From an uncultured Pseudomonadota bacterium (GTDB taxonomy: Bacteria > Pseudomonadota > Alphaproteobacteria > Rs-D84): a stretch of DNA of 64,000 nt. This document shows positions 26,371 through 59,470 of this stretch, one piece after another; position 1 is the first letter of the stretch; each line of letters begins with the position of its first letter. The notes beneath the pieces were generated by a model. That model was not told where the DNA came from, ran no database searches, and worked only from the letters and a program-made list of their open reading frames with translations. Where the stretch lies: assembly GCA_900320405.1 (NCBI GenBank), contig OOHM01000001.1:2843-66842 (forward strand). Reading direction: 5' to 3'. Made by a program: the position numbers and the translations under genes.

Positions 26371-26517
26371 AAAAACAACCCGCCGCGTGGCGGGTTTTCT
26401 TGTTTACACGCGCGCGTAAAAATGTTATAATAAATAAAACTTGGGTGAAATTTAAGGTCGGATTTCGCCACGAATGTGGTGTGTTTCGGGCGTTTCCGAA
26501 TATAATGGAGAGTGTTT

Positions 26518-28608
26518 ATGAAAAAACGTTATGTCGCAAATATGTGTAAAAATGCACTGGGGGCGGTATTGTTGTTAATGGGTGCATTTTTCGTATGTTC
26601 AACATTGTTGTCTATGCGTGTTGTGTTCGCGGATCCAATCGCGCCGGCAATTGACCCGGCGGTCACAATGGAACAAAACCAGACATCGCCACGCACCGGT
26701 CGTGCAAGCCCACGTGGCACAAATGCAATATCTGTGGCGCGTCCTACAACGGCGGCAACGACAAACGCGGGTGCATCGCGTGGTGTCACCGCACGCAAGG
26801 TTGCATCCCGGACAAATTCTGGCGCATCTGATACGGTTGCCCGTACAACAACGCGTAATGTTGTTGCGCGCACCGCCCGTACAACGACCGCAAATCGGTC
26901 TACAACACGTAATGTTCGTGCCCGCACGGGTGCGACACAATCACGCGTTGCATTGGAAGGTGAACCGACGCGTGGCACAAAAACAAAAATCAACAGCAGT
27001 TATTACACATATCTTTCGGGCAAATTGTATTCCGGAAATTATTCCAATATTATCGATTCAACAACGGGATTGATTTCTGCCGAGGCATACAGCAATTGTT
27101 TGGAATCATACTATACATGTATGGATGAAATATGTACAGCGCGTAATGCGGCGCAACGCCGTTGTGCGTGTGCCGGTCGTGTCAAAGCCTTTGCCGAGGC
27201 CGAAGATGCATTGGAATCTGCCAACGAAGAATTGATTAAAATATCTGGTGAATTGGCATTGCTGATTGCAAACAAGGGTAAAGAAGTTAGTGCCGCGTTC
27301 AGTCTTACCGATGCAGAAAAGGTTATGAACTGCGCATCCTGGCGCGAAGTTTCGCATATGGATACATCGGGTGCCGCCGGTACGGGCTGTGATGCGGACG
27401 CAATGAAAACCTGGTGCGAAAGCCACGGTGAATATACAAATTGTTCTTGCTCGGTTGCACCGTCATATTGTACAAACGAAAGCGTTTACGGGTTCAAGGT
27501 TCAAGATCTTGATGGTGCGGGTTCCGATATTTTGGCGTCTTTGGCAAATTGGGCAGACACAGTCAAAACGAATGTTGATACAATCTTGACCAATAATGAT
27601 GATTCTGTGTTCAGTGCCATTTCAACATTGACCGGCGTAATAAATGGTATCACCGGTTCTGCGTCATCATTATATGCGGATGAAACCAAAGATACATTGG
27701 CGGAAACATGGGGGTACGATTTGTTCCGCTATGCGCATAATAATGTATGCGCACGCGTATTGGATTCGTGCTTTAATGGTATATATGAAGGTTGCGGTAC
27801 GCCACCGACCGGTGGACGCTGTGCGAACGGCGCAACATCGTCTTGTCCGTTTAATTATAACAGCAAGGTTGAAATATCATCCTCTGGTGATGTGACATTG
27901 AACGAACGCAGCACCGCCGGTGCGAATGCATCTGCATCGTGCTTTGGTTATTCGACATCTTCGGGTGACCCATATTCGTCTTTACGTGGCCCGGTTGCCG
28001 ATGCACGTCGGTCTGTGATGCAGAAATATTTGTTGGATGCGAACGCAGATTGCGACCTGTATGGCGAACAATTGAAAACAACCGCACAAAAGATTGCGTA
28101 TCAAAAGGTTGCCGCACAACAGGCGTTGCAACAGAAGCGTTTGGAATTCTATAACGAAGAACGCGATACGATTTTGAATAACGCGGTCGCCGCCGGTACG
28201 AACTTTAATGAATGTATCAGCGAATTGTGGGATTGTTATGAAACCCAGGCATCTGCGAACGAAACATGGTCAACGGCGCGTATTAAAACATATTGTGCCC
28301 AGATTGCAAATTCTCCGCATTGCTATCAAGATATGATTTGCACACCGTCTGTGGCCCAGTTCAAGGCGATTATTGACTTGGCAGATAGTACCTCTTGCCA
28401 ATGGCACGCCAGTGATTATACAAAAAATACTTGTCGCAACGTTGTGACACTTAATGAAATTTTAAGTTCTAATGGTGCAAGTTCCACGGCCACAAACCCA
28501 AGCGGGACCGAAACGACCGGTAATTCGGCGGCATTCCGTGAACAGTGTCTGCGTGATACTTTGGGTTGCCCAGGCGAGGGTTGTATTCGCGAATGGCGCC
28601 GCAACTAA
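26518..28608 (+). CDS. Large cysteine-rich secreted protein
   Basis: Arg/Thr-rich linker then CLESYYTCMDEIC..RRCAC; paralog of 30345. Confidence 0.8.
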   Translation: MKKRYVANMCKNALGAVLLLMGAFFVCSTLLSMRVVFADPIAPAIDPAVTMEQNQTSPRTGRASPRGTNAISVARPTTAATTNAGASRGVTARKVASRTNSGASDTVARTTTRNVVARTARTTTANRSTTRNVRARTGATQSRVALEGEPTRGTKTKINSSYYTYLSGKLYSGNYSNIIDSTTGLISAEAYSNCLESYYTCMDEICTARNAAQRRCACAGRVKAFAEAEDALESANEELIKISGELALLIANKGKEVSAAFSLTDAEKVMNCASWREVSHMDTSGAAGTGCDADAMKTWCESHGEYTNCSCSVAPSYCTNESVYGFKVQDLDGAGSDILASLANWADTVKTNVDTILTNNDDSVFSAISTLTGVINGITGSASSLYADETKDTLAETWGYDLFRYAHNNVCARVLDSCFNGIYEGCGTPPTGGRCANGATSSCPFNYNSKVEISSSGDVTLNERSTAGANASASCFGYSTSSGDPYSSLRGPVADARRSVMQKYLLDANADCDLYGEQLKTTAQKIAYQKVAAQQALQQKRLEFYNEERDTILNNAVAAGTNFNECISELWDCYETQASANETWSTARIKTYCAQIANSPHCYQDMICTPSVAQFKAIIDLADSTSCQWHASDYTKNTCRNVVTLNEILSSNGASSTATNPSGTETTGNSAAFREQCLRDTLGCPGEGCIREWRRN

Positions 28609-29473: not shown

Positions 29474-29932
29474 TTAATTTTTATTCCACAGCCAACAATT
29501 TTCATCGGTATGTGTTGCATTGTATGTTGTTGCTCCGTCTGGCCATCCGGCACAGGACATTTTATTTTCTGTCAGCTCAAGAGCTTCATTTATTTTATAA
29601 TCCACTAGGCCAAGTGTTGGAATGATCTTATCGTAATCGCTATCATTTACACCATTGATTGCTTGTTCTTCTGATGTTGCCCATACGCCAAAATAATTAC
29701 CTGTTATACCACCATTGTTTGAGTCATAACTGACCAAAGCAGGCAAACTTGCTACATTTGTTCCGCCATGTTTATCGGCAACTTCTATTTCCACCATATC
29801 GGTATCAATTAAATCTTGTTTCAATGCGTCCGCTGCATCCACATAGTCCCGCGATGTGACGGTCGCGCTTGTTGCGTATGCGCCGGTTGCCAAAACGGAT
29901 GCGATTACACTGAATAATAAAGTTTTGCTCAT
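29474..29932 (-). CDS. Secreted VTSxxYVD-family protein
   Basis: Signal peptide, ATVTSRDYVDAADALKQD, C-terminal CAGW..ENCWLW. Confidence 0.8.
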   Translation of the reverse strand: MSKTLLFSVIASVLATGAYATSATVTSRDYVDAADALKQDLIDTDMVEIEVADKHGGTNVASLPALVSYDSNNGGITGNYFGVWATSEEQAINGVNDSDYDKIIPTLGLVDYKINEALELTENKMSCAGWPDGATTYNATHTDENCWLWNKN

Positions 29933-30344: not shown

Positions 30345-32984
30345 ATGAAGGGTTTTAAATTTGGGTTTTTGGTTGCGTTAACTGCGCTGCCTGCTTTGGC
30401 GGCGGGTGGTGTGTCACGCATAATTCCCGGAACAGATATTGAAACCAAACCGACGGTGGATGCCACATTGCGCAACGATGTGGAAAATTCTACCGGTGCG
30501 GTGATACGGTCGACAACCGCGCGTGGTGCGCAGACGGAAAATCAGACGCGTACCGCGGTGACGCGTAATACTTCACGTACCGTGGCCCCAGAAATTCCGG
30601 AACAAACGCGCACTGCAAATCGTTCTGCGGCGGTGTCGCGTTCACAAACAAATACCGATGCGCGCAGCACCCTGGAATCCACTCTGCGCACCAGTGGCCG
30701 TTCAACCCGGACCGATGCCGCCAGTATAAATTCAAATCCGGCGGTTCGTCGTATGGGATTAACTTTGCGCCCCAGCACGGCCGAGGTTGGTGGTCGTGCA
30801 ACAATGGAATCTGGTGCCCAGACCGGTTCAAATATGGCGTCGGAAATTCGCAATTTGCAATCTTCACGTATCGCGACGATAAAAACGCGCGACAATACAA
30901 AATTGGACCCGGCCGCCATTGCCGATGCCAAAGATCGTTTAGAACAAACGGCGGCGTTGAATAAATCTTGCCAAGAACAATACAATGATTGTATGGATCA
31001 ATTCTGTGCCGTTATTGACGCAAACCAAAAACGTTGTTCTTGTTCATCTAATTTGTCCAAGTATGCCAAGGTTGAAAAGGCGGTAAAAGATGCCAACGCC
31101 GAATTAAATTCGGTTGCACAAAATATTCGATATGTCGGTTTGTCTGCGGATGAAATATCGGCAATTATGTCCGCGACCGAGGCCGAAGAGGCGATGACCG
31201 GCAAAACCGATACAACCGAAAATCGCACTTTGTTGGCACAAATCGAACAAATGATAAAGGATCCCACAACGACATCGTCTTCTTCGTTTTCGACCGATTC
31301 ATTTGGTTTGTTGGATATAGATTTGGATTTTTCGTCTTCGGAATTAAACGATTTGTTCACTTTGGATTTTCTGACAAATGGTAACAGCACATTTTCAAAC
31401 CTGCGTGGTGCGGATTTGTATAATGCCGCAAAAAAGCGTTGCAACACCATCATAACCCAATGCAAAGAGGTTGGTGCCACGGCGCAACAAATCACCGGGA
31501 ATTATGATTTGGCGATTGATAAAGATTGTATCGCATATGAACAGGGCCTGACCAAGATGAACGAAACATTGGTGTCCAATGTTCGCAGTGCCACGCGTAT
31601 GTTGCAAAAGGCGCGTCTTGCGGTGTTGCAAAACCAAAACACGTACGATGCGCGCGGTTGTGTTAGTGCACTGGAAACATGTATGACCGATGAAATGGTT
31701 TGCGGTGAAGATTATAAAAAATGCCTTGACCCGACCAAGAAATTCATTGATGAAAATGGTAATGTTGTGTTGGGTAAAAATGTAAATTATATCCAATTGT
31801 TTATGACTAAATATAGCAACGCCGGTGTTGACCGCACATATTTGTCGTCTGCATATAACACGGGAATATCGGACGCCGATTGTGCGGGTCGGTATAACGA
31901 TGGGCGTTGTGTTGTAAAATACTTGTTGACCAAAATTGGCACGGCACGAAAGGCGACCGATGAAGGTCTGTGTCGGCCTGTGTTGGATAAATGTCGCGCA
32001 TACACATACGATACGCGCGGAAATTACAATGCATATAACGATATTGTTGTGAACTATATTCAACGTGCGATGGTTAATATCAAGGCCGCCCAGTATCAAA
32101 TAGTTTCAGATTATGCATCAACGTGTTTAAGTGATATCGCCACATGTTATAATAACCAGGTTTCACAATTGACATCTTGGTCGGCAACCGCGGCGGCATC
32201 CAGTGTTTACAACATTATGCGTGGTGCGTGCCGCAATGTTGCGTTGACATGCGGATATGCGGTATTCGCCGCCGATCAAACCAGTTGCCCAACCGGCGAC
32301 AACACCGCCGATCAAAACAGCTGTATAGAAAGTATTTCCGAAATATTCTATCAATCGTTATTGTGCCCGGATAATTCGGTGTATGTTGGTGGAAATCATA
32401 CGATATCTGCAAATAACACTGTGGGTGGATATGTGAATCCTTTGTGTCAATGTAAAGATGACTTTACGGTGTTTAATGGTTCGTGCCTGGCGGTATGTGA
32501 TAACGGCGGTATATACCTGGCCAACGGCGCGTGCAGTACGGTTGCCTGTCCGGCCGATGCGGTCGAAGCCAGTGGCGACGAAGTCGAATTCTGGGGACAT
32601 TGCAAGTGCAGAAATACATCGTTCCATTGGTTCCCACTGTTACAGGCGTGCAAGACATGCCCAGATAATTCAGAATATATTGCCACCGCAACCAGTGGCA
32701 CACCAAATGCAATACGTTACTATAACTATCAATGCGTGTGTAACGATGGGGCTGAGGATAATCCGTTCTTTGTGCTTAATAATCGTTCGTGTGCCCAATG
32801 TCCGGACGGTTCAACCTATAACACAAATTACCCAACATCTGGGGCGCGTTGCAACTGTACTAACCCTGCGGCGCCATATTATTGCGCGACGAATAATCGT
32901 TGTTTGGCAAGTTCGGGTGCGTGCCCTGTTCCAATTGGTGGTGGTGGTACCGCGAATGAACAAACAAACGTCAATGACAGATAA
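30345..32984 (+). CDS. Large cysteine-rich secreted protein with EGF/furin-like C-terminal repeats
   Basis: Signal peptide, CQEQYNDCMDQFC..KRCSC, repeated CPDNS/CPDGS..CxC. Confidence 0.8.
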   Translation: MKGFKFGFLVALTALPALAAGGVSRIIPGTDIETKPTVDATLRNDVENSTGAVIRSTTARGAQTENQTRTAVTRNTSRTVAPEIPEQTRTANRSAAVSRSQTNTDARSTLESTLRTSGRSTRTDAASINSNPAVRRMGLTLRPSTAEVGGRATMESGAQTGSNMASEIRNLQSSRIATIKTRDNTKLDPAAIADAKDRLEQTAALNKSCQEQYNDCMDQFCAVIDANQKRCSCSSNLSKYAKVEKAVKDANAELNSVAQNIRYVGLSADEISAIMSATEAEEAMTGKTDTTENRTLLAQIEQMIKDPTTTSSSSFSTDSFGLLDIDLDFSSSELNDLFTLDFLTNGNSTFSNLRGADLYNAAKKRCNTIITQCKEVGATAQQITGNYDLAIDKDCIAYEQGLTKMNETLVSNVRSATRMLQKARLAVLQNQNTYDARGCVSALETCMTDEMVCGEDYKKCLDPTKKFIDENGNVVLGKNVNYIQLFMTKYSNAGVDRTYLSSAYNTGISDADCAGRYNDGRCVVKYLLTKIGTARKATDEGLCRPVLDKCRAYTYDTRGNYNAYNDIVVNYIQRAMVNIKAAQYQIVSDYASTCLSDIATCYNNQVSQLTSWSATAAASSVYNIMRGACRNVALTCGYAVFAADQTSCPTGDNTADQNSCIESISEIFYQSLLCPDNSVYVGGNHTISANNTVGGYVNPLCQCKDDFTVFNGSCLAVCDNGGIYLANGACSTVACPADAVEASGDEVEFWGHCKCRNTSFHWFPLLQACKTCPDNSEYIATATSGTPNAIRYYNYQCVCNDGAEDNPFFVLNNRSCAQCPDGSTYNTNYPTSGARCNCTNPAAPYYCATNNRCLASSGACPVPIGGGGTANEQTNVNDR

Positions 32985-56358: not shown

Positions 56359-57498
56359 ATGTTCAAACGCACGGAAGAAAGCAAACTGACCAGTTGGTTT
56401 TTTGAAATCGACAGACGCCTTCTTTATGTGGTTCTGTTGATGATTGCGATTGGTATGTGTTTTGCCGTTTCCGCGGGCAGTGTCGCGGCCGAGCGTATAA
56501 ATCAACCGTGGTATTTCTTTATTGCCAAGGCGTTCCCGTTTTATATTATTGGTATTGCCACATTATTCGTGACCAGTTTGTTGAACAAGAAAGTTATTTT
56601 GGGAATTTCTATTGCAGATGTTGCGGTTGGTTTGGTCTTATTGATGATGACGGTTGTGTCACCACATATCATCAAGGGTTCTGCGCGATTTGTGTCTATG
56701 GGGCCGGTAAATATTTTGCCATCTGATATTATGAAGCCCGGTTTTATTATGTTGACCGCGTGGTTTTTGGCGGCGATGCGACATCGTTTTGGTGAAAAAA
56801 TGTTCGTGGTTCGCCCTGCGTGGAAAATTCGGTGGTTAAGTTGGTGGTCGTATATTGTATTGTTTGTACCGGTATTGGTGATTATTTTAAGACACCCTGA
56901 TGTGGGGACTTCATTATTATACCTTGGGGTATTGATGGCTATGTTGTTGATTGCTGGTCTGCCGTGGTATGTATTTGGTGGACTTGTTGCGGCGGGTGGC
57001 GGGATATTGGTATTTGCGTATCATACGATGTCGCACGTGCATAATCGTATTGATGCAATGTTGACCGGTACCGGCGACACATACCAGGTGACCCAGTCTG
57101 TCCAATCTATACAACACGGCGGTTTATTTGGTCGTGGTGATGACGCATTTATCAAACAATCGTTGCCCGATGCGCACACAGATTTTATTTACGCGGCAAT
57201 CGTTGAAGATTTGGGCGCGATAATGGCGTGTTTGTTGTTGGGGTTATTGGTGTATGTGTTAAAATTATTGGTGACCGATGCATTGAATGCGCGCGACCGT
57301 TTCGTGTTCTATGCGGTTGGTGGTACGGCGGCATTATTTGGAATTCAGGCGTGCATAAATTTAATATCTACATTGCATTTGTTTGCGCCAAAGGGTATGA
57401 CTTTGCCGTTTATATCGTACGGGGGCAGTTCACTGATTGGTTTTTGCCTGTTGTTCGGTATGGTATTGGCGATTGTGCGTGAAGATAAATGGAAATAG
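56359..57498 (+). CDS. ftsW: SEDS peptidoglycan polymerase FtsW
   Basis: LPDAHTDFI, KGMTLPFISYGGSS; located between mraY and murG. Confidence 0.92.
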   Translation: MFKRTEESKLTSWFFEIDRRLLYVVLLMIAIGMCFAVSAGSVAAERINQPWYFFIAKAFPFYIIGIATLFVTSLLNKKVILGISIADVAVGLVLLMMTVVSPHIIKGSARFVSMGPVNILPSDIMKPGFIMLTAWFLAAMRHRFGEKMFVVRPAWKIRWLSWWSYIVLFVPVLVIILRHPDVGTSLLYLGVLMAMLLIAGLPWYVFGGLVAAGGGILVFAYHTMSHVHNRIDAMLTGTGDTYQVTQSVQSIQHGGLFGRGDDAFIKQSLPDAHTDFIYAAIVEDLGAIMACLLLGLLVYVLKLLVTDALNARDRFVFYAVGGTAALFGIQACINLISTLHLFAPKGMTLPFISYGGSSLIGFCLLFGMVLAIVREDKWK

Positions 57499-57511
57499 CA
57501 AGGGGTTGAAT

Positions 57512-58558
57512 ATGAAAATATGGGTTGCAACGGGTGGAACGGGTGGACATGTTTTTCCGGCATTGGCGGTCGCGACCGAATTGGCGTCGCGTGGGCATAA
57601 AATAACCGTATCGTGCGATGGTCGCGTAAATAAAATGGTTGCCGATGGTGCACCAACGGGTGCGCGGCGCGTTCATATATGGGCATCCGGTGTCGGTGCA
57701 AAAAGTCGTATAAAACAGATGTGGGCGTTATTCAAAATAGGAATGTCTGCGATTGCGTTGATTTTACGATTTGTGTTTTCGCGTCCAAATCGTGTTGTCG
57801 CGTTTGGGGGATATGCGTCTGTGCCGGTTGTGTTCGCGGCACATATTTGGGGAATTCCAACATATCTGCACGAACAGAACGGTGCAATTGGTCGTGCAAA
57901 CCGGTTCGCGATGCGTTGGGTAAAAACATTGATGACCAGTTTTCATAATGTTTCCGGTATTCCGCAAAATTCTGGTGCACGCGTGGTATATACAGGTTTG
58001 CCGGTTCGTCGCGAATTTATTGAACACGCGGGCACGCCATTGCCGGGAAAAACCCATATACTGGTGACGGGCGGATCTTTGGGAGCGCAAATTTTGGATA
58101 CGGTTGTGCCAATTGCGGTGCGGGATATGAAAAATAAAAAGATTTTTATAACACACCAAACGCGCCCAGAAAATGTTGCGCGCCTGCAAAAATTCTATGC
58201 AGATAACAAAATACACGCAAATGTATTGTCTTTTATTCGCGATATGGCGGACGCAATTACGGATTCTGATTTGGTTATTGGTCGCAGCGGGGCCAGCACA
58301 GTTATAGAATTGACCACAATTGGGCGCCCGGCGATATTGGTTCCGTTGTCGATTAACCCAGACCAGGCCGCCAATGCCGCGAATTTTGAAAAATTGGGTG
58401 GCGGATTTTCGGTGCCCCAAGACAAATTTACCCCGAAATGGTTGACGGCAACATTGACCGAATTGTTTGAAAACCCGACGCGTTTGGAAAAAATGGCAAA
58501 GAAATCGTTGGTAAAAAATGATGCGGTTCAAATGATTGCCGATACGGTTACGGCATAA
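57512..58558 (+). CDS. murG: MurG glycosyltransferase
   Basis: GGTGGHVFPA, GGYAS, HEQN, GGSLGA, RSGAST. Confidence 0.95.
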   Translation: MKIWVATGGTGGHVFPALAVATELASRGHKITVSCDGRVNKMVADGAPTGARRVHIWASGVGAKSRIKQMWALFKIGMSAIALILRFVFSRPNRVVAFGGYASVPVVFAAHIWGIPTYLHEQNGAIGRANRFAMRWVKTLMTSFHNVSGIPQNSGARVVYTGLPVRREFIEHAGTPLPGKTHILVTGGSLGAQILDTVVPIAVRDMKNKKIFITHQTRPENVARLQKFYADNKIHANVLSFIRDMADAITDSDLVIGRSGASTVIELTTIGRPAILVPLSINPDQAANAANFEKLGGGFSVPQDKFTPKWLTATLTELFENPTRLEKMAKKSLVKNDAVQMIADTVTA

Positions 58559-58610
58559 TATCCCAAAATACCGGCAAATATTGCCGGTGTTTATTTTTGT
58601 AAAATAATAC

Positions 58611-58639
58611 TTGTGTTATTTTTTCAAACCTGTTATGAT
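58611..58639 (+). promoter_or_regulatory. Putative sigma70 promoter of leader copy 2
   Basis: TTGTGT-17 nt-TATGAT. Confidence 0.5.
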
Positions 58640-58644
58640 AGGTA

Positions 58645-58855
58645 TGAATCCAATTGAAGTTGTTGGGTTTGGGATTGTGAAGGGGTTCCAAACAGGCATG
58701 GCACAACGCATACAACAATTTCTGTTTGTATGGTGTGTCGCCCGATTTTCCCCGTTATGGGGTCGGGGTGCCGAATGTGTATATCTGAAGACATTCGGAG
58801 TCATTTGCTTGTATGATTCCTCAACGCCCCGACACACACTTCCAAATTTGATTCA
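58645..58855 (+). ncRNA. Candidate structured leader RNA, copy 2
   Basis: Same motif blocks and covarying stems as 29980..30150 on the minus strand. Confidence 0.65.
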
Positions 58856-58894
58856 CGCACAACAACAGATTCCATAGGAAGGGGGAAAATCATC

Positions 58895-59470
58895 ATGAAA
58901 AAATTGGCATTTATATCGTTGGCGGCGATAATGGCGTCGTTTGCCGCGTCCGCAGACACAATCGTTACATCAAAGACATATGTTGATTCCAAAGATAATT
59001 TAAAACAAAATGCAATTACCGCCGGTGCGGCAAACAGTGTTGCGTTATATACTGGCACAACCACGACAAATGGTGGTGCAGATTTTACATCAAGAAATTT
59101 GTACAGCGATACCACCGCATCCAACTATGTCGCGAATACTCACTCAACTTATATTCCAACAATGGGTGCGGTTATGGCCCAGATTACAAGCAGTGTTCCG
59201 TCAGGGACGGCAAATAATGTTGCAACATACGATGCCCAGGGTAAATTAAGTGCGACCGGTCGCGGTGTTTACAGTGATGCATCGTCATACACGGCGGCCA
59301 ACGATGCGGATAAATTGGTCGCGGCATCCGCATTGAATACGGTTAAAACGGCGGTTGATACATTACAAAATTGCACGCATACATGTGCATCCAGTGACCC
59401 AACCAATGCGCCAAATGCATGTGATTTGATAACAATCAATTGTGTCCAAACGGCATCGCAGGGTGGTTAG
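58895..59470 (+). CDS. Secreted VTSxxYVD-family protein
   Basis: Signal peptide, ADTIVTSKTYVDSKDNLKQN; internal duplication GxANxVAxY..RxxYSD..xY. Confidence 0.8.
   Translation: MKKLAFISLAAIMASFAASADTIVTSKTYVDSKDNLKQNAITAGAANSVALYTGTTTTNGGADFTSRNLYSDTTASNYVANTHSTYIPTMGAVMAQITSSVPSGTANNVATYDAQGKLSATGRGVYSDASSYTAANDADKLVAASALNTVKTAVDTLQNCTHTCASSDPTNAPNACDLITINCVQTASQGG

Follow-up and report, generated by a model that had tools for sequence, protein, structure and literature searches.

We analysed a structured 5' leader RNA encoded in a 64,000-nucleotide (nt) stretch of DNA from an uncultured alphaproteobacterium (GCA_900320405.1, contig OOHM01000001.1). This whole stretch is termed the window; positions refer to it, and to its forward strand, unless stated otherwise. 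The region of interest, 58611-58894, is flanked by the terminator of murG and a 191-codon gene, and comprises a promoter, a structured region of approximately 190 nt (58646-58833, termed copy A) and a 61-nt expression platform (58834-58894) with the Shine-Dalgarno sequence. The upstream open reading frame (ORF), 57437-58558, contains the N- and C-terminal Glyco_transf_28 domains of Pfam, which confirms the housekeeping context after murG that an earlier note on this DNA had described. Its intrinsic terminator (58566-58592; 12 pairs and a T-run) marks the start of an independent transcription unit. The leader has its own predicted sigma-70-like promoter (58612-58639), with the -35 box TTGTGT at 58612-58617, the -10 box TATGAT at 58634-58639, a 16-nt spacer and a predicted start at G58646. 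This promoter was read from the sequence, and a stricter promoter scan omitted the site, as its -35 box matches at only three of six positions. When 65 copies of the leader are aligned on the first G of its first hairpin (P0), T is enriched at -35 and TA at -12/-11. Moreover, two ruminant-gut studies have yielded metatranscriptome contigs over 58662-59026 and 58674-58885; these start 16-28 nt past the predicted +1, and none extends into murG.

The gene behind copy A runs from the ATG at 58895 to 59470. Its product of 191 amino acids (aa) has a signal-peptide-like N-terminus and a VTSxxYVD motif, and is assigned to no Pfam family. Its 50 relatives are all unnamed or "hypothetical", and a weak, below-threshold resemblance to phage tail-fibre families is a lead only.

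A second copy of the leader (copy B) occupies the reverse strand from 30170 down to 29980, with a terminator fused to it (29983 down to 29961), upstream of a paralogue of the same gene (29474-29932, reverse strand). That the two are copies of one element had been claimed before, and they are indeed homologous: a direct MAFFT alignment gives 75% column identity, with identity blocks at the junctions. The proposed 5' register, which aligned AACAGG with AACAGG, was wrong, since the segment in copy A is the 5' strand of a long-range helix (helix c, see below) and its match in copy B is a loop. Both copies fold better than shuffled sequences (z scores of -3.35 for copy A and -5.33 for copy B; 0 of 200 shuffles as good). 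As the earlier note had stated, copy A, in contrast to copy B, has no U-tailed terminator; no terminator-like site was found in 58593-59000.

Fold and covariation of the leader

The structure, refined by hand, was assessed on 80 copies, which were aligned to the model from the 78 loci supplied. Two truncated copies, one weak match, two weak matches in the genome that contains the window (termed the source genome) and the GGDEF loci were omitted. The resulting fold has 52 pairs in eight helices. In the alignments used for counting, which were fitted to the model and therefore inflate the percentages given here and below, 95.9% of the cells are paired, compared to 70.8% after column shuffling and 38-46% when the partners are slid by one to three columns. 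Double-sided changes occur at 47 of the 52 pairs and in 956 cells, against 245 ± 15 in shuffled controls, and 0 of 500 shuffles reach 956. Across the helices there are 481 G-U combinations and only 28 A-C combinations, which argues for pairing in RNA read on the leader strand rather than in DNA. RNAalifold, applied to a plain, unfitted MAFFT alignment of 23 copies, recovers P0, P1', P2, AT, P5 and P6. Thus, with compensatory change in every helix across the 80 copies and double-sided changes well beyond those of the shuffled controls, the earlier suggestion of selection on RNA structure rather than recent duplication is borne out.

The first helix, P0, is a G-U-rich hairpin at the extreme 5' end (58646-58654 with 58662-58670 in copy A). 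All of its nine pairs show double-sided changes (97.1% paired), and in most copies, copy A not being one of them, its loop is a four-base G..A loop. Binding of CsrA to the P0 loop, which contains GGA in some copies, was considered and dropped, since the loops of other clades lack GGA. The second helix, P1' (58671-58676 with 58684-58689, assigned by hand in copy A), is 88.4% paired, and one of its pairs is GC in 45, AU in 19 and GU in 9 copies. Its loop contains the strand b5' (58678-58682), which pairs with five nt near the 3' end (b3', 58819-58823) to form the pseudoknot helix b, the third helix. Helix b is 99.8% paired and has one A-C mismatch in copy A; three of its five pairs occur in four types. 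A second pseudoknot, helix c, connects the linker behind P1' (c5', 58692-58698) with the loop of P6 (c3', 58806-58812). Each of its eight pairs occurs in all four Watson-Crick types (97.7% paired); copy A has seven pairs, one of them G-U, as assigned by hand.

The fifth helix, P2 (58700-58739), is a hairpin of variable length (91.8% paired) that is also predicted in the fold of copy A. It is followed by a junction and strand (ii) (58744-58754), whose CCCCG at 58750-58754 pairs with strand (iii) (58761-58770) to form P3, the sixth helix (95.2% paired; one pair is GC in 62, GU in 9 and AU in 5 copies). P5 (58771-58778 with 58791-58798), the seventh, has a conserved loop or internal loop and double-sided changes at eight of its nine pairs (97.3% paired). 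Docking of the P0 loop into the conserved internal loop of P5, suggested by a likeness to a tetraloop and its receptor, was an idea only, and copies with a plain P5 keep the loop. The eighth helix, P6 (58799-58804 with 58813-58818), is invariant in the close genus and compensated in distant homologues; 17 copies lack its usual 3' arm, and in 14 of these the 5' arm matches. Finally, strand (iv) (58825-58833) forms nine pairs with 58762-58770. This helix, termed AT, is an alternative to P3 for strand (iii) and belongs to the minimum-free-energy fold of copy A. It is 92.2% paired, with 40 double-sided changes against 11 in shuffles and 57 G-U against 16 A-C combinations; its pair 238/383 of alignment A5, for example, is AU in 43, UA in 18 and GU in 8 copies. 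Another pairing of strand (iv), with strand (i) (helix a, between the first G-run and the 3' C-run), was dropped, because at one position the C stays when its partner becomes A (16 A-C cells); the nt of strand (i) covary instead inside P1'.

One related genus (g3; e.g. loci L061, L067, L068 and L073) departs from this arrangement at both ends. Its -10 box lies approximately 35 nt further upstream, a conserved extra hairpin precedes P0, and the 3' platform is a different conserved hairpin without a U-tail.

The leader family and the genes behind it

The source genome (914 kb) contains six copies of the leader. Five on contig 4 were found with a simple pattern and used to build a covariance model, which recovered the sixth, in front of a gene for a family-8 glycosyltransferase. 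The model has matches in 47 of 61 related genomes, the source genome included: in 33 of 36 genomes of its own genus (family f1), 11 of 14 of family f3, 2 of 4 of f2 and 0 of 6 of f4-f6. Within the genus the number of copies ranges from roughly one to at least 40 per genome, one genome of approximately 1 Mb having matches in all 40 candidates scored. Of 151 genomes drawn evenly from the class, 9, belonging to eight families, carry the leader; some of these hosts have genomes of 1.4-3 Mb, and the diagnostic strands are kept in the alignments. An exact-pattern scan of named records yielded at least 120 loci. The approximately 80 of these that were examined all come from uncultured metagenome-assembled genomes, mostly labelled Alphaproteobacteria, several of them Candidatus Enterousia, with a few other labels including one Myxococcota; the sources are mostly ruminant, horse and human guts. 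Thus, the earlier observation is real and far larger than first seen: the leader is a widespread multi-copy family rather than a pair. In many relatives (e.g. genomes G019, G054 and G058) the copies lie 40-270 nt from contig ends and read endward. Assembly seemingly stops within the conserved 5' region of the paralogues that follow, so that the counts for fragmented genomes are too low.

The family is new. A scan of the whole window with the 4227 models of Rfam 15 at gathering thresholds returned rRNA and tRNA only. With copies A and B and E values up to 10, the best match, located on the opposite strand, scored 21.3 bits where its threshold is 53, and the weak matches to sRNA-Xcc1 (E 0.33, opposite strand) and MicF (E 5.9) are at chance level. 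A full-text literature search found no description of the motif. The word RNA is absent from the accessible text of an mSphere paper on Ca. Enterousia (PMC12306168). A human-microbiome catalogue, as far as its accessible part indicates, has thousands of unnamed models in its supplements, and the motif may be among them, unnamed (PMC8040213). The leader is a new family of structured RNA, as it belongs to none of the described families against which it was tested.

The genes behind the leader were surveyed in a first set of 66 copies (67 matches minus one reverse-strand artefact), 65 of which are immediately followed by an ORF or are located at the end of a contig. A downstream ORF was found for 51 copies, and 10 of the other 15 had less than 200 nt of downstream sequence. 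In Pfam searches, 38 of the 51 ORFs have no family and three have matches below the curated cut-offs. The families detected are EcoRI-type adenine methyltransferases (two), glycosyltransferases (two of family 2, one of family 8 and one GT-D), a YadA anchor, a Chlamydia-PMP autotransporter, a PLD-type nuclease and a helix-turn-helix protein (one each). In distant genomes, 4 of 16 downstream ORFs have a family, namely an Opa-like outer-membrane beta-barrel, an acyltransferase-3, an FkbM methyltransferase and a polysaccharide pyruvyl transferase. Judged by eye, a signal-peptide-like segment stands at the start of many unnamed proteins. By these annotations, the predicted regulon of the leader is a cell-surface and accessory gene set. 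Such gene sets are often phase-variable in other host-adapted bacteria.

To regard the leader as one of the VTSxxYVD paralogues as such is too narrow in view of the genes listed above, and only 4 of the approximately 22 paralogue starts in the source genome carry it. Approximately 16 others are preceded by a near-identical, inverton-like cassette of approximately 130 bp, bounded by inverted repeats of approximately 20 bp, and two have neither. Examples of the cassette are found on contig 3 at approximately 97.6, 187.7, 211.6, 259.4 and 265.6 kb and on contig 4 at approximately 42.3 kb (approximately 39.4 kb in the window). In one of them (contig 3, upstream of 265817) the middle approximately 70 bp are in the opposite orientation. 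The cassette fits an invertible promoter, to judge from its repeats and orientations.

Two large predicted secreted proteins of 698 and 879 aa are encoded around copy B, at 26512-28608 and 30345-32984. They share a low-complexity N-terminal part rich in Arg, Thr and Ala and many conserved cysteine motifs, and the copy B leader runs divergently from the gene of the 879-aa protein.

Strand competition and its possible readings

Strand (iii) can pair with strand (ii) in P3 or with strand (iv) in AT. Both pairings are compensated, as (ii) and (iv) each follow the changes in (iii); the two helices, which are mutually exclusive, are therefore both under selection. One genome has nearly the same 10-mer as (ii) and as (iv). 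The AT duplex is the stronger one in all 80 copies, with medians of -18.1 kcal/mol for AT and -13.0 kcal/mol for P3. Strand (iv) is in turn connected to the expression platform. In 47 of the 80 copies the first nt of a terminator stem is the G or A of the GACC that ends (iv), and in 54 the stem starts within 5 nt; in the fused copies it thus begins with the last 3-4 nt of (iv). By a rule-based count, 26 copies, copy A included, have no terminator. The earlier idea of a constant core with variable platforms holds in this form. Strand (iv) also resembles an anti-Shine-Dalgarno sequence, and in the other copies a few tens of nt separate it from the ribosome-binding site. Thirteen copies that lack a canonical fused terminator were examined, and in 12 of them the local minimum-energy fold pairs the two, which is partly expected because (iv) is C-rich.

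The leader has two general features of a riboswitch, namely a conserved, structured domain in the 5' untranslated region with covariation, and mutually exclusive structures tied to a terminator or a ribosome-binding site, from which we infer a functional consequence. On balance, it is probably a cis-acting two-state switch on the gene behind it that is shifted by an effector, an orphan riboswitch being its most likely form. Transcribed from its own promoter, such a switch would permit expression when (iii) holds (iv) in AT, as the base of the terminator or the anti-Shine-Dalgarno strand would be tied up. When (iii) is held by (ii) in P3, (iv) would be free, and transcription would stop or the ribosome-binding site would be masked. 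The balance between these states would be shifted by an effector, most likely a small molecule or an ion. We lean slightly towards an ON switch, in which the effector would stabilise the pseudoknotted, AT-containing fold, because all other conserved helices are compatible with AT.

In copy A the control would be at the level of translation. The Shine-Dalgarno region GGAAGGGGG at 58877-58885 is a possible pairing partner of both CUUCC at 58839-58843 and strand (iv). Moreover, 58744-58753, within the junction and strand (ii), is a perfect 10-nt complement of the ribosome-binding region 58882-58891, and forms part of an inverted repeat (58744-58756/58879-58891). The extra outer helix described earlier for copy A is present as well, with its 5' arms at 58645-58650 and 58656-58660 and its 3' arms in the platform at 58850-58855 and 58838-58842, respectively; it competes with the family-wide hairpin P0. 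An orthologous copy A platform was found in 2 of 100 genomes of the genus, neither of them with a terminator. Both orthologues keep the outer helix, with changes that are all wobble-compatible, and the 10-nt complement between (ii) and the Shine-Dalgarno region, with one U-A to G-C change. The RNA-library contigs have C instead of T at 58840 (T58840C), a change that costs the outer helix and the pairing between CUUCC and GGAAG one pair each. Because the platform adds the (ii)-to-Shine-Dalgarno complement and the outer helix, the polarity of copy A is uncertain.

A number of points weigh against such a switch. In copy A it is (ii) and not (iv) that best complements the ribosome-binding site, so that the logic would be inverted in this copy. 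AT and the terminator share no more than 3-4 nt and could partially coexist. The fold has few universally conserved unpaired nt, most invariant positions being in P1', P3/AT and P6, which is unusual for a small-molecule pocket. The gene context names no ligand, with 38 of 51 and 12 of 16 downstream ORFs lacking a Pfam family, and the paired percentages come from alignments fitted to the model. The RNA cover consists of contigs rather than reads, carries no strand, ends or abundance, and may include DNA carry-over; stretches of the window that it leaves bare are uninformative. Finally, one copy in the source genome (copy D, contig 4, 265013-265216) is an intact leader with no downstream gene, which a role in cis only leaves unexplained.

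The earlier wording of a "sensor" domain is unproven, and the three obvious second messengers, cyclic di-GMP (c-di-GMP), cyclic di-AMP (c-di-AMP) and the guanosine phosphates (p)ppGpp, are unlikely as the common ligand. Profiles for GGDEF, DAC, RelA/SpoT and NusG were searched in one set of 61 genomes. None of the 37 genomes in the motif-rich genus (36 and the source genome) has a GGDEF match, in contrast to 13 of 14 of family f3. RelA/SpoT shows the same split, with 0 of 37 and 14 of 14. DAC, conversely, is found in 24 of the 36 genus genomes, is absent from the source genome (93.6% complete), and was detected in 0 of 14 genomes of f3, 11 of which carry the leader. The second-messenger enzymes are thus divided by clade, the genus having only DAC of the three and f3 having GGDEF and RelA/SpoT and no DAC. 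Absence of a synthase from incomplete genomes is not proof, although 0 of 37 and 0 of 14 are consistent. Because each messenger lacks its synthase in one leader-carrying clade, none of the three is a plausible common ligand.

In a less likely, though serious, alternative, the same AT/P3 attenuator is balanced by a protein or by the kinetics of transcription (speed of RNA polymerase, nucleoside triphosphate pools or Mg2+). The conserved positions are mostly helical and sequence-specific G4/C4 tracts are kept, as would be expected for a protein site or for constraints from multiple partners, and the regulon resembles a global surface programme rather than a metabolic pathway. However, there is no candidate protein. 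The N-terminal domain of NusG has exactly one match in 59 of the 61 genomes and none in the other two, with no RfaH-, LoaP- or UpxY-like paralogue, so that antitermination by a second NusG-family protein was rejected. The double-pseudoknot core, moreover, exceeds the needs of most protein-dependent attenuators.

It appears unlikely that the leader is a constitutive structure, that is, a 5'-end stabiliser, processing site or insulator, without regulated switching. Such a role would suit a hairpin whose position is precisely the predicted +1 in every one of the 80 copies, and the terminator that directly follows might shield the gene from read-through arriving from upstream; yet it leaves unexplained the two mutually exclusive, compensated helices, the mimicry of (iv) by (ii) and the fusion of (iv) to the terminator in 47 of the 80 copies.

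Still less probable is a role of the terminated leader of approximately 230 nt as a small RNA in its own right, one that acts in trans or sequesters a protein, with expression of the downstream gene as leakage. Copy D would be such a case, as it has both a fused and a second terminator (265013-265286), and the next gene is a convergent ORF for a PBP1A-like penicillin-binding protein; one of the RNA-library contigs also spans a leader alone (58674-58885). However, of the 66 copies in the first set, all but one have an ORF directly behind them or stand at the end of a contig, a second promoter would not fit into the spacing of 20-70 nt, and 26 of the 80 copies have no terminator. Helices b and c, moreover, vary between copies, so that there is no common seed.

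A self-cleaving or otherwise catalytic RNA in the 5' untranslated region is very improbable. The double-pseudoknot architecture, the many copies and the varied neighbouring genes would suit it; nevertheless, no ribozyme model of Rfam matches even at E values up to 10, the place between promoter and terminator is fixed, and few unpaired nt are conserved.

We give hardly any credence to a DNA-level element, i.e. an invertible segment, a recombination site or a miniature mobile repeat that mimics RNA helices. Strands (iii) and (iv) are inverted repeats of 9-10 bp at a distance of 55-65 bp, the same gene family uses a true inverton-like cassette elsewhere in the source genome, and the chance-level match on the opposite strand (E 0.33) is to the model of an integron-derived small RNA. 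The excess of G-U over A-C, in AT as in all helices, nevertheless indicates strand-specific RNA pairing, and copies in the same genome differ by compensated changes instead of being near-identical. The 5' and 3' domains have one arrangement in 80 of 80 copies, and no inverted repeats were found around the promoter in the four of the six copies of the source genome that were scanned; membership of the inverton class was rejected on these grounds. Finally, a small protein-coding gene, for which there is the 88-codon ORF 58611-58877 in copy A and some depletion of stop triplets (7.9 against 10.1 per leader), is rejected, since no frame is conserved (5, 9 and 9 of 80 copies are stop-free over the whole leader in the three anchored frames), the length steps of P2 and P5 are not multiples of three, and substitutions are pairwise rather than codon-wise.

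Possible significance and comparison with known systems

The leader would be a large, well-supported new class of regulatory RNA from uncultured bacteria, whose hundreds of natural copies offer enough variation to define the fold in detail. Its three-way strand competition, fused to a terminator, is a mechanism that is directly testable in vitro. It also marks a regulon of surface proteins and surface-modifying enzymes in the little-known Ca. Enterousia-like and related gut Alphaproteobacteria. We tentatively propose, as a possibility rather than an expectation, that the leader is an orphan riboswitch for a core, host-derived or partner-derived metabolite or ion, which would govern the whole variable surface programme gene by gene. 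If so, this programme would span the fibre-like secreted proteins, autotransporters, Opa-like porins, surface-glycan transferases and orphan DNA methylases of reduced-genome gut Alphaproteobacteria. With 5 to at least 40 copies per genome of approximately 1 Mb, it would, to our knowledge, be among the densest riboswitch regulons. The identity of the effector would reveal what these reduced-genome bacteria sense in the gut. Moreover, the leader would act alongside DNA inversion as a second, RNA-level on/off control of contingency-type genes, and a single paralogue family under either a leader RNA or an invertible promoter would provide a natural comparison of RNA- and DNA-level control of surface variation.

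Among known systems, the transcriptional riboswitches of the fluoride/crcB type are alike in being pseudoknotted cis leaders in which a long-range helix shares a few nt with the stem of the terminator, and some of their members have translational platforms instead, as in the leader family. The leader, in contrast, is approximately four times larger, has two pseudoknots and the internal competitor (ii), matches no Rfam model and serves a surface and accessory regulon. The c-di-GMP-I (GEMM) riboswitches and their relatives also occur in many copies per genome before genes for adhesins, secreted proteins and surface-modifying enzymes, and their terminal four-base G..A loop recalls the P0 loop of most leader copies. 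However, the leader does not match their Rfam models, GGDEF is absent from the 37 genomes of the motif-rich genus, and the DAC and RelA/SpoT profiles do not fit either.

The competition between (ii):(iii), (iii):(iv) and (iv):terminator resembles the 1:2, 2:3 and 3:4 pairings of trp-type attenuators and the T-box. Unlike these, the leader has no leader-peptide frame and no match to the T-box model, and its competition takes place inside a large conserved tertiary scaffold; a leader-peptide attenuator was rejected, as the 80 copies have no conserved short ORF. The RNAs of processive antitermination, such as put of phages and EAR of the exopolysaccharide operons of Bacillus, are likewise structured RNAs located early in surface-gene units and followed by terminators. 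In the leader, by contrast, the terminator is fused to the 3' strand and the alternative pairings are conserved, and there is no similarity to those families. A further counterpart is the putative invertible-promoter cassette of the source genome, which would control the same paralogue family with one unit per gene. The cassette is near-identical DNA with 20-bp inverted repeats that is found in both orientations, whereas the leader is a diverged, covarying RNA in a fixed orientation.

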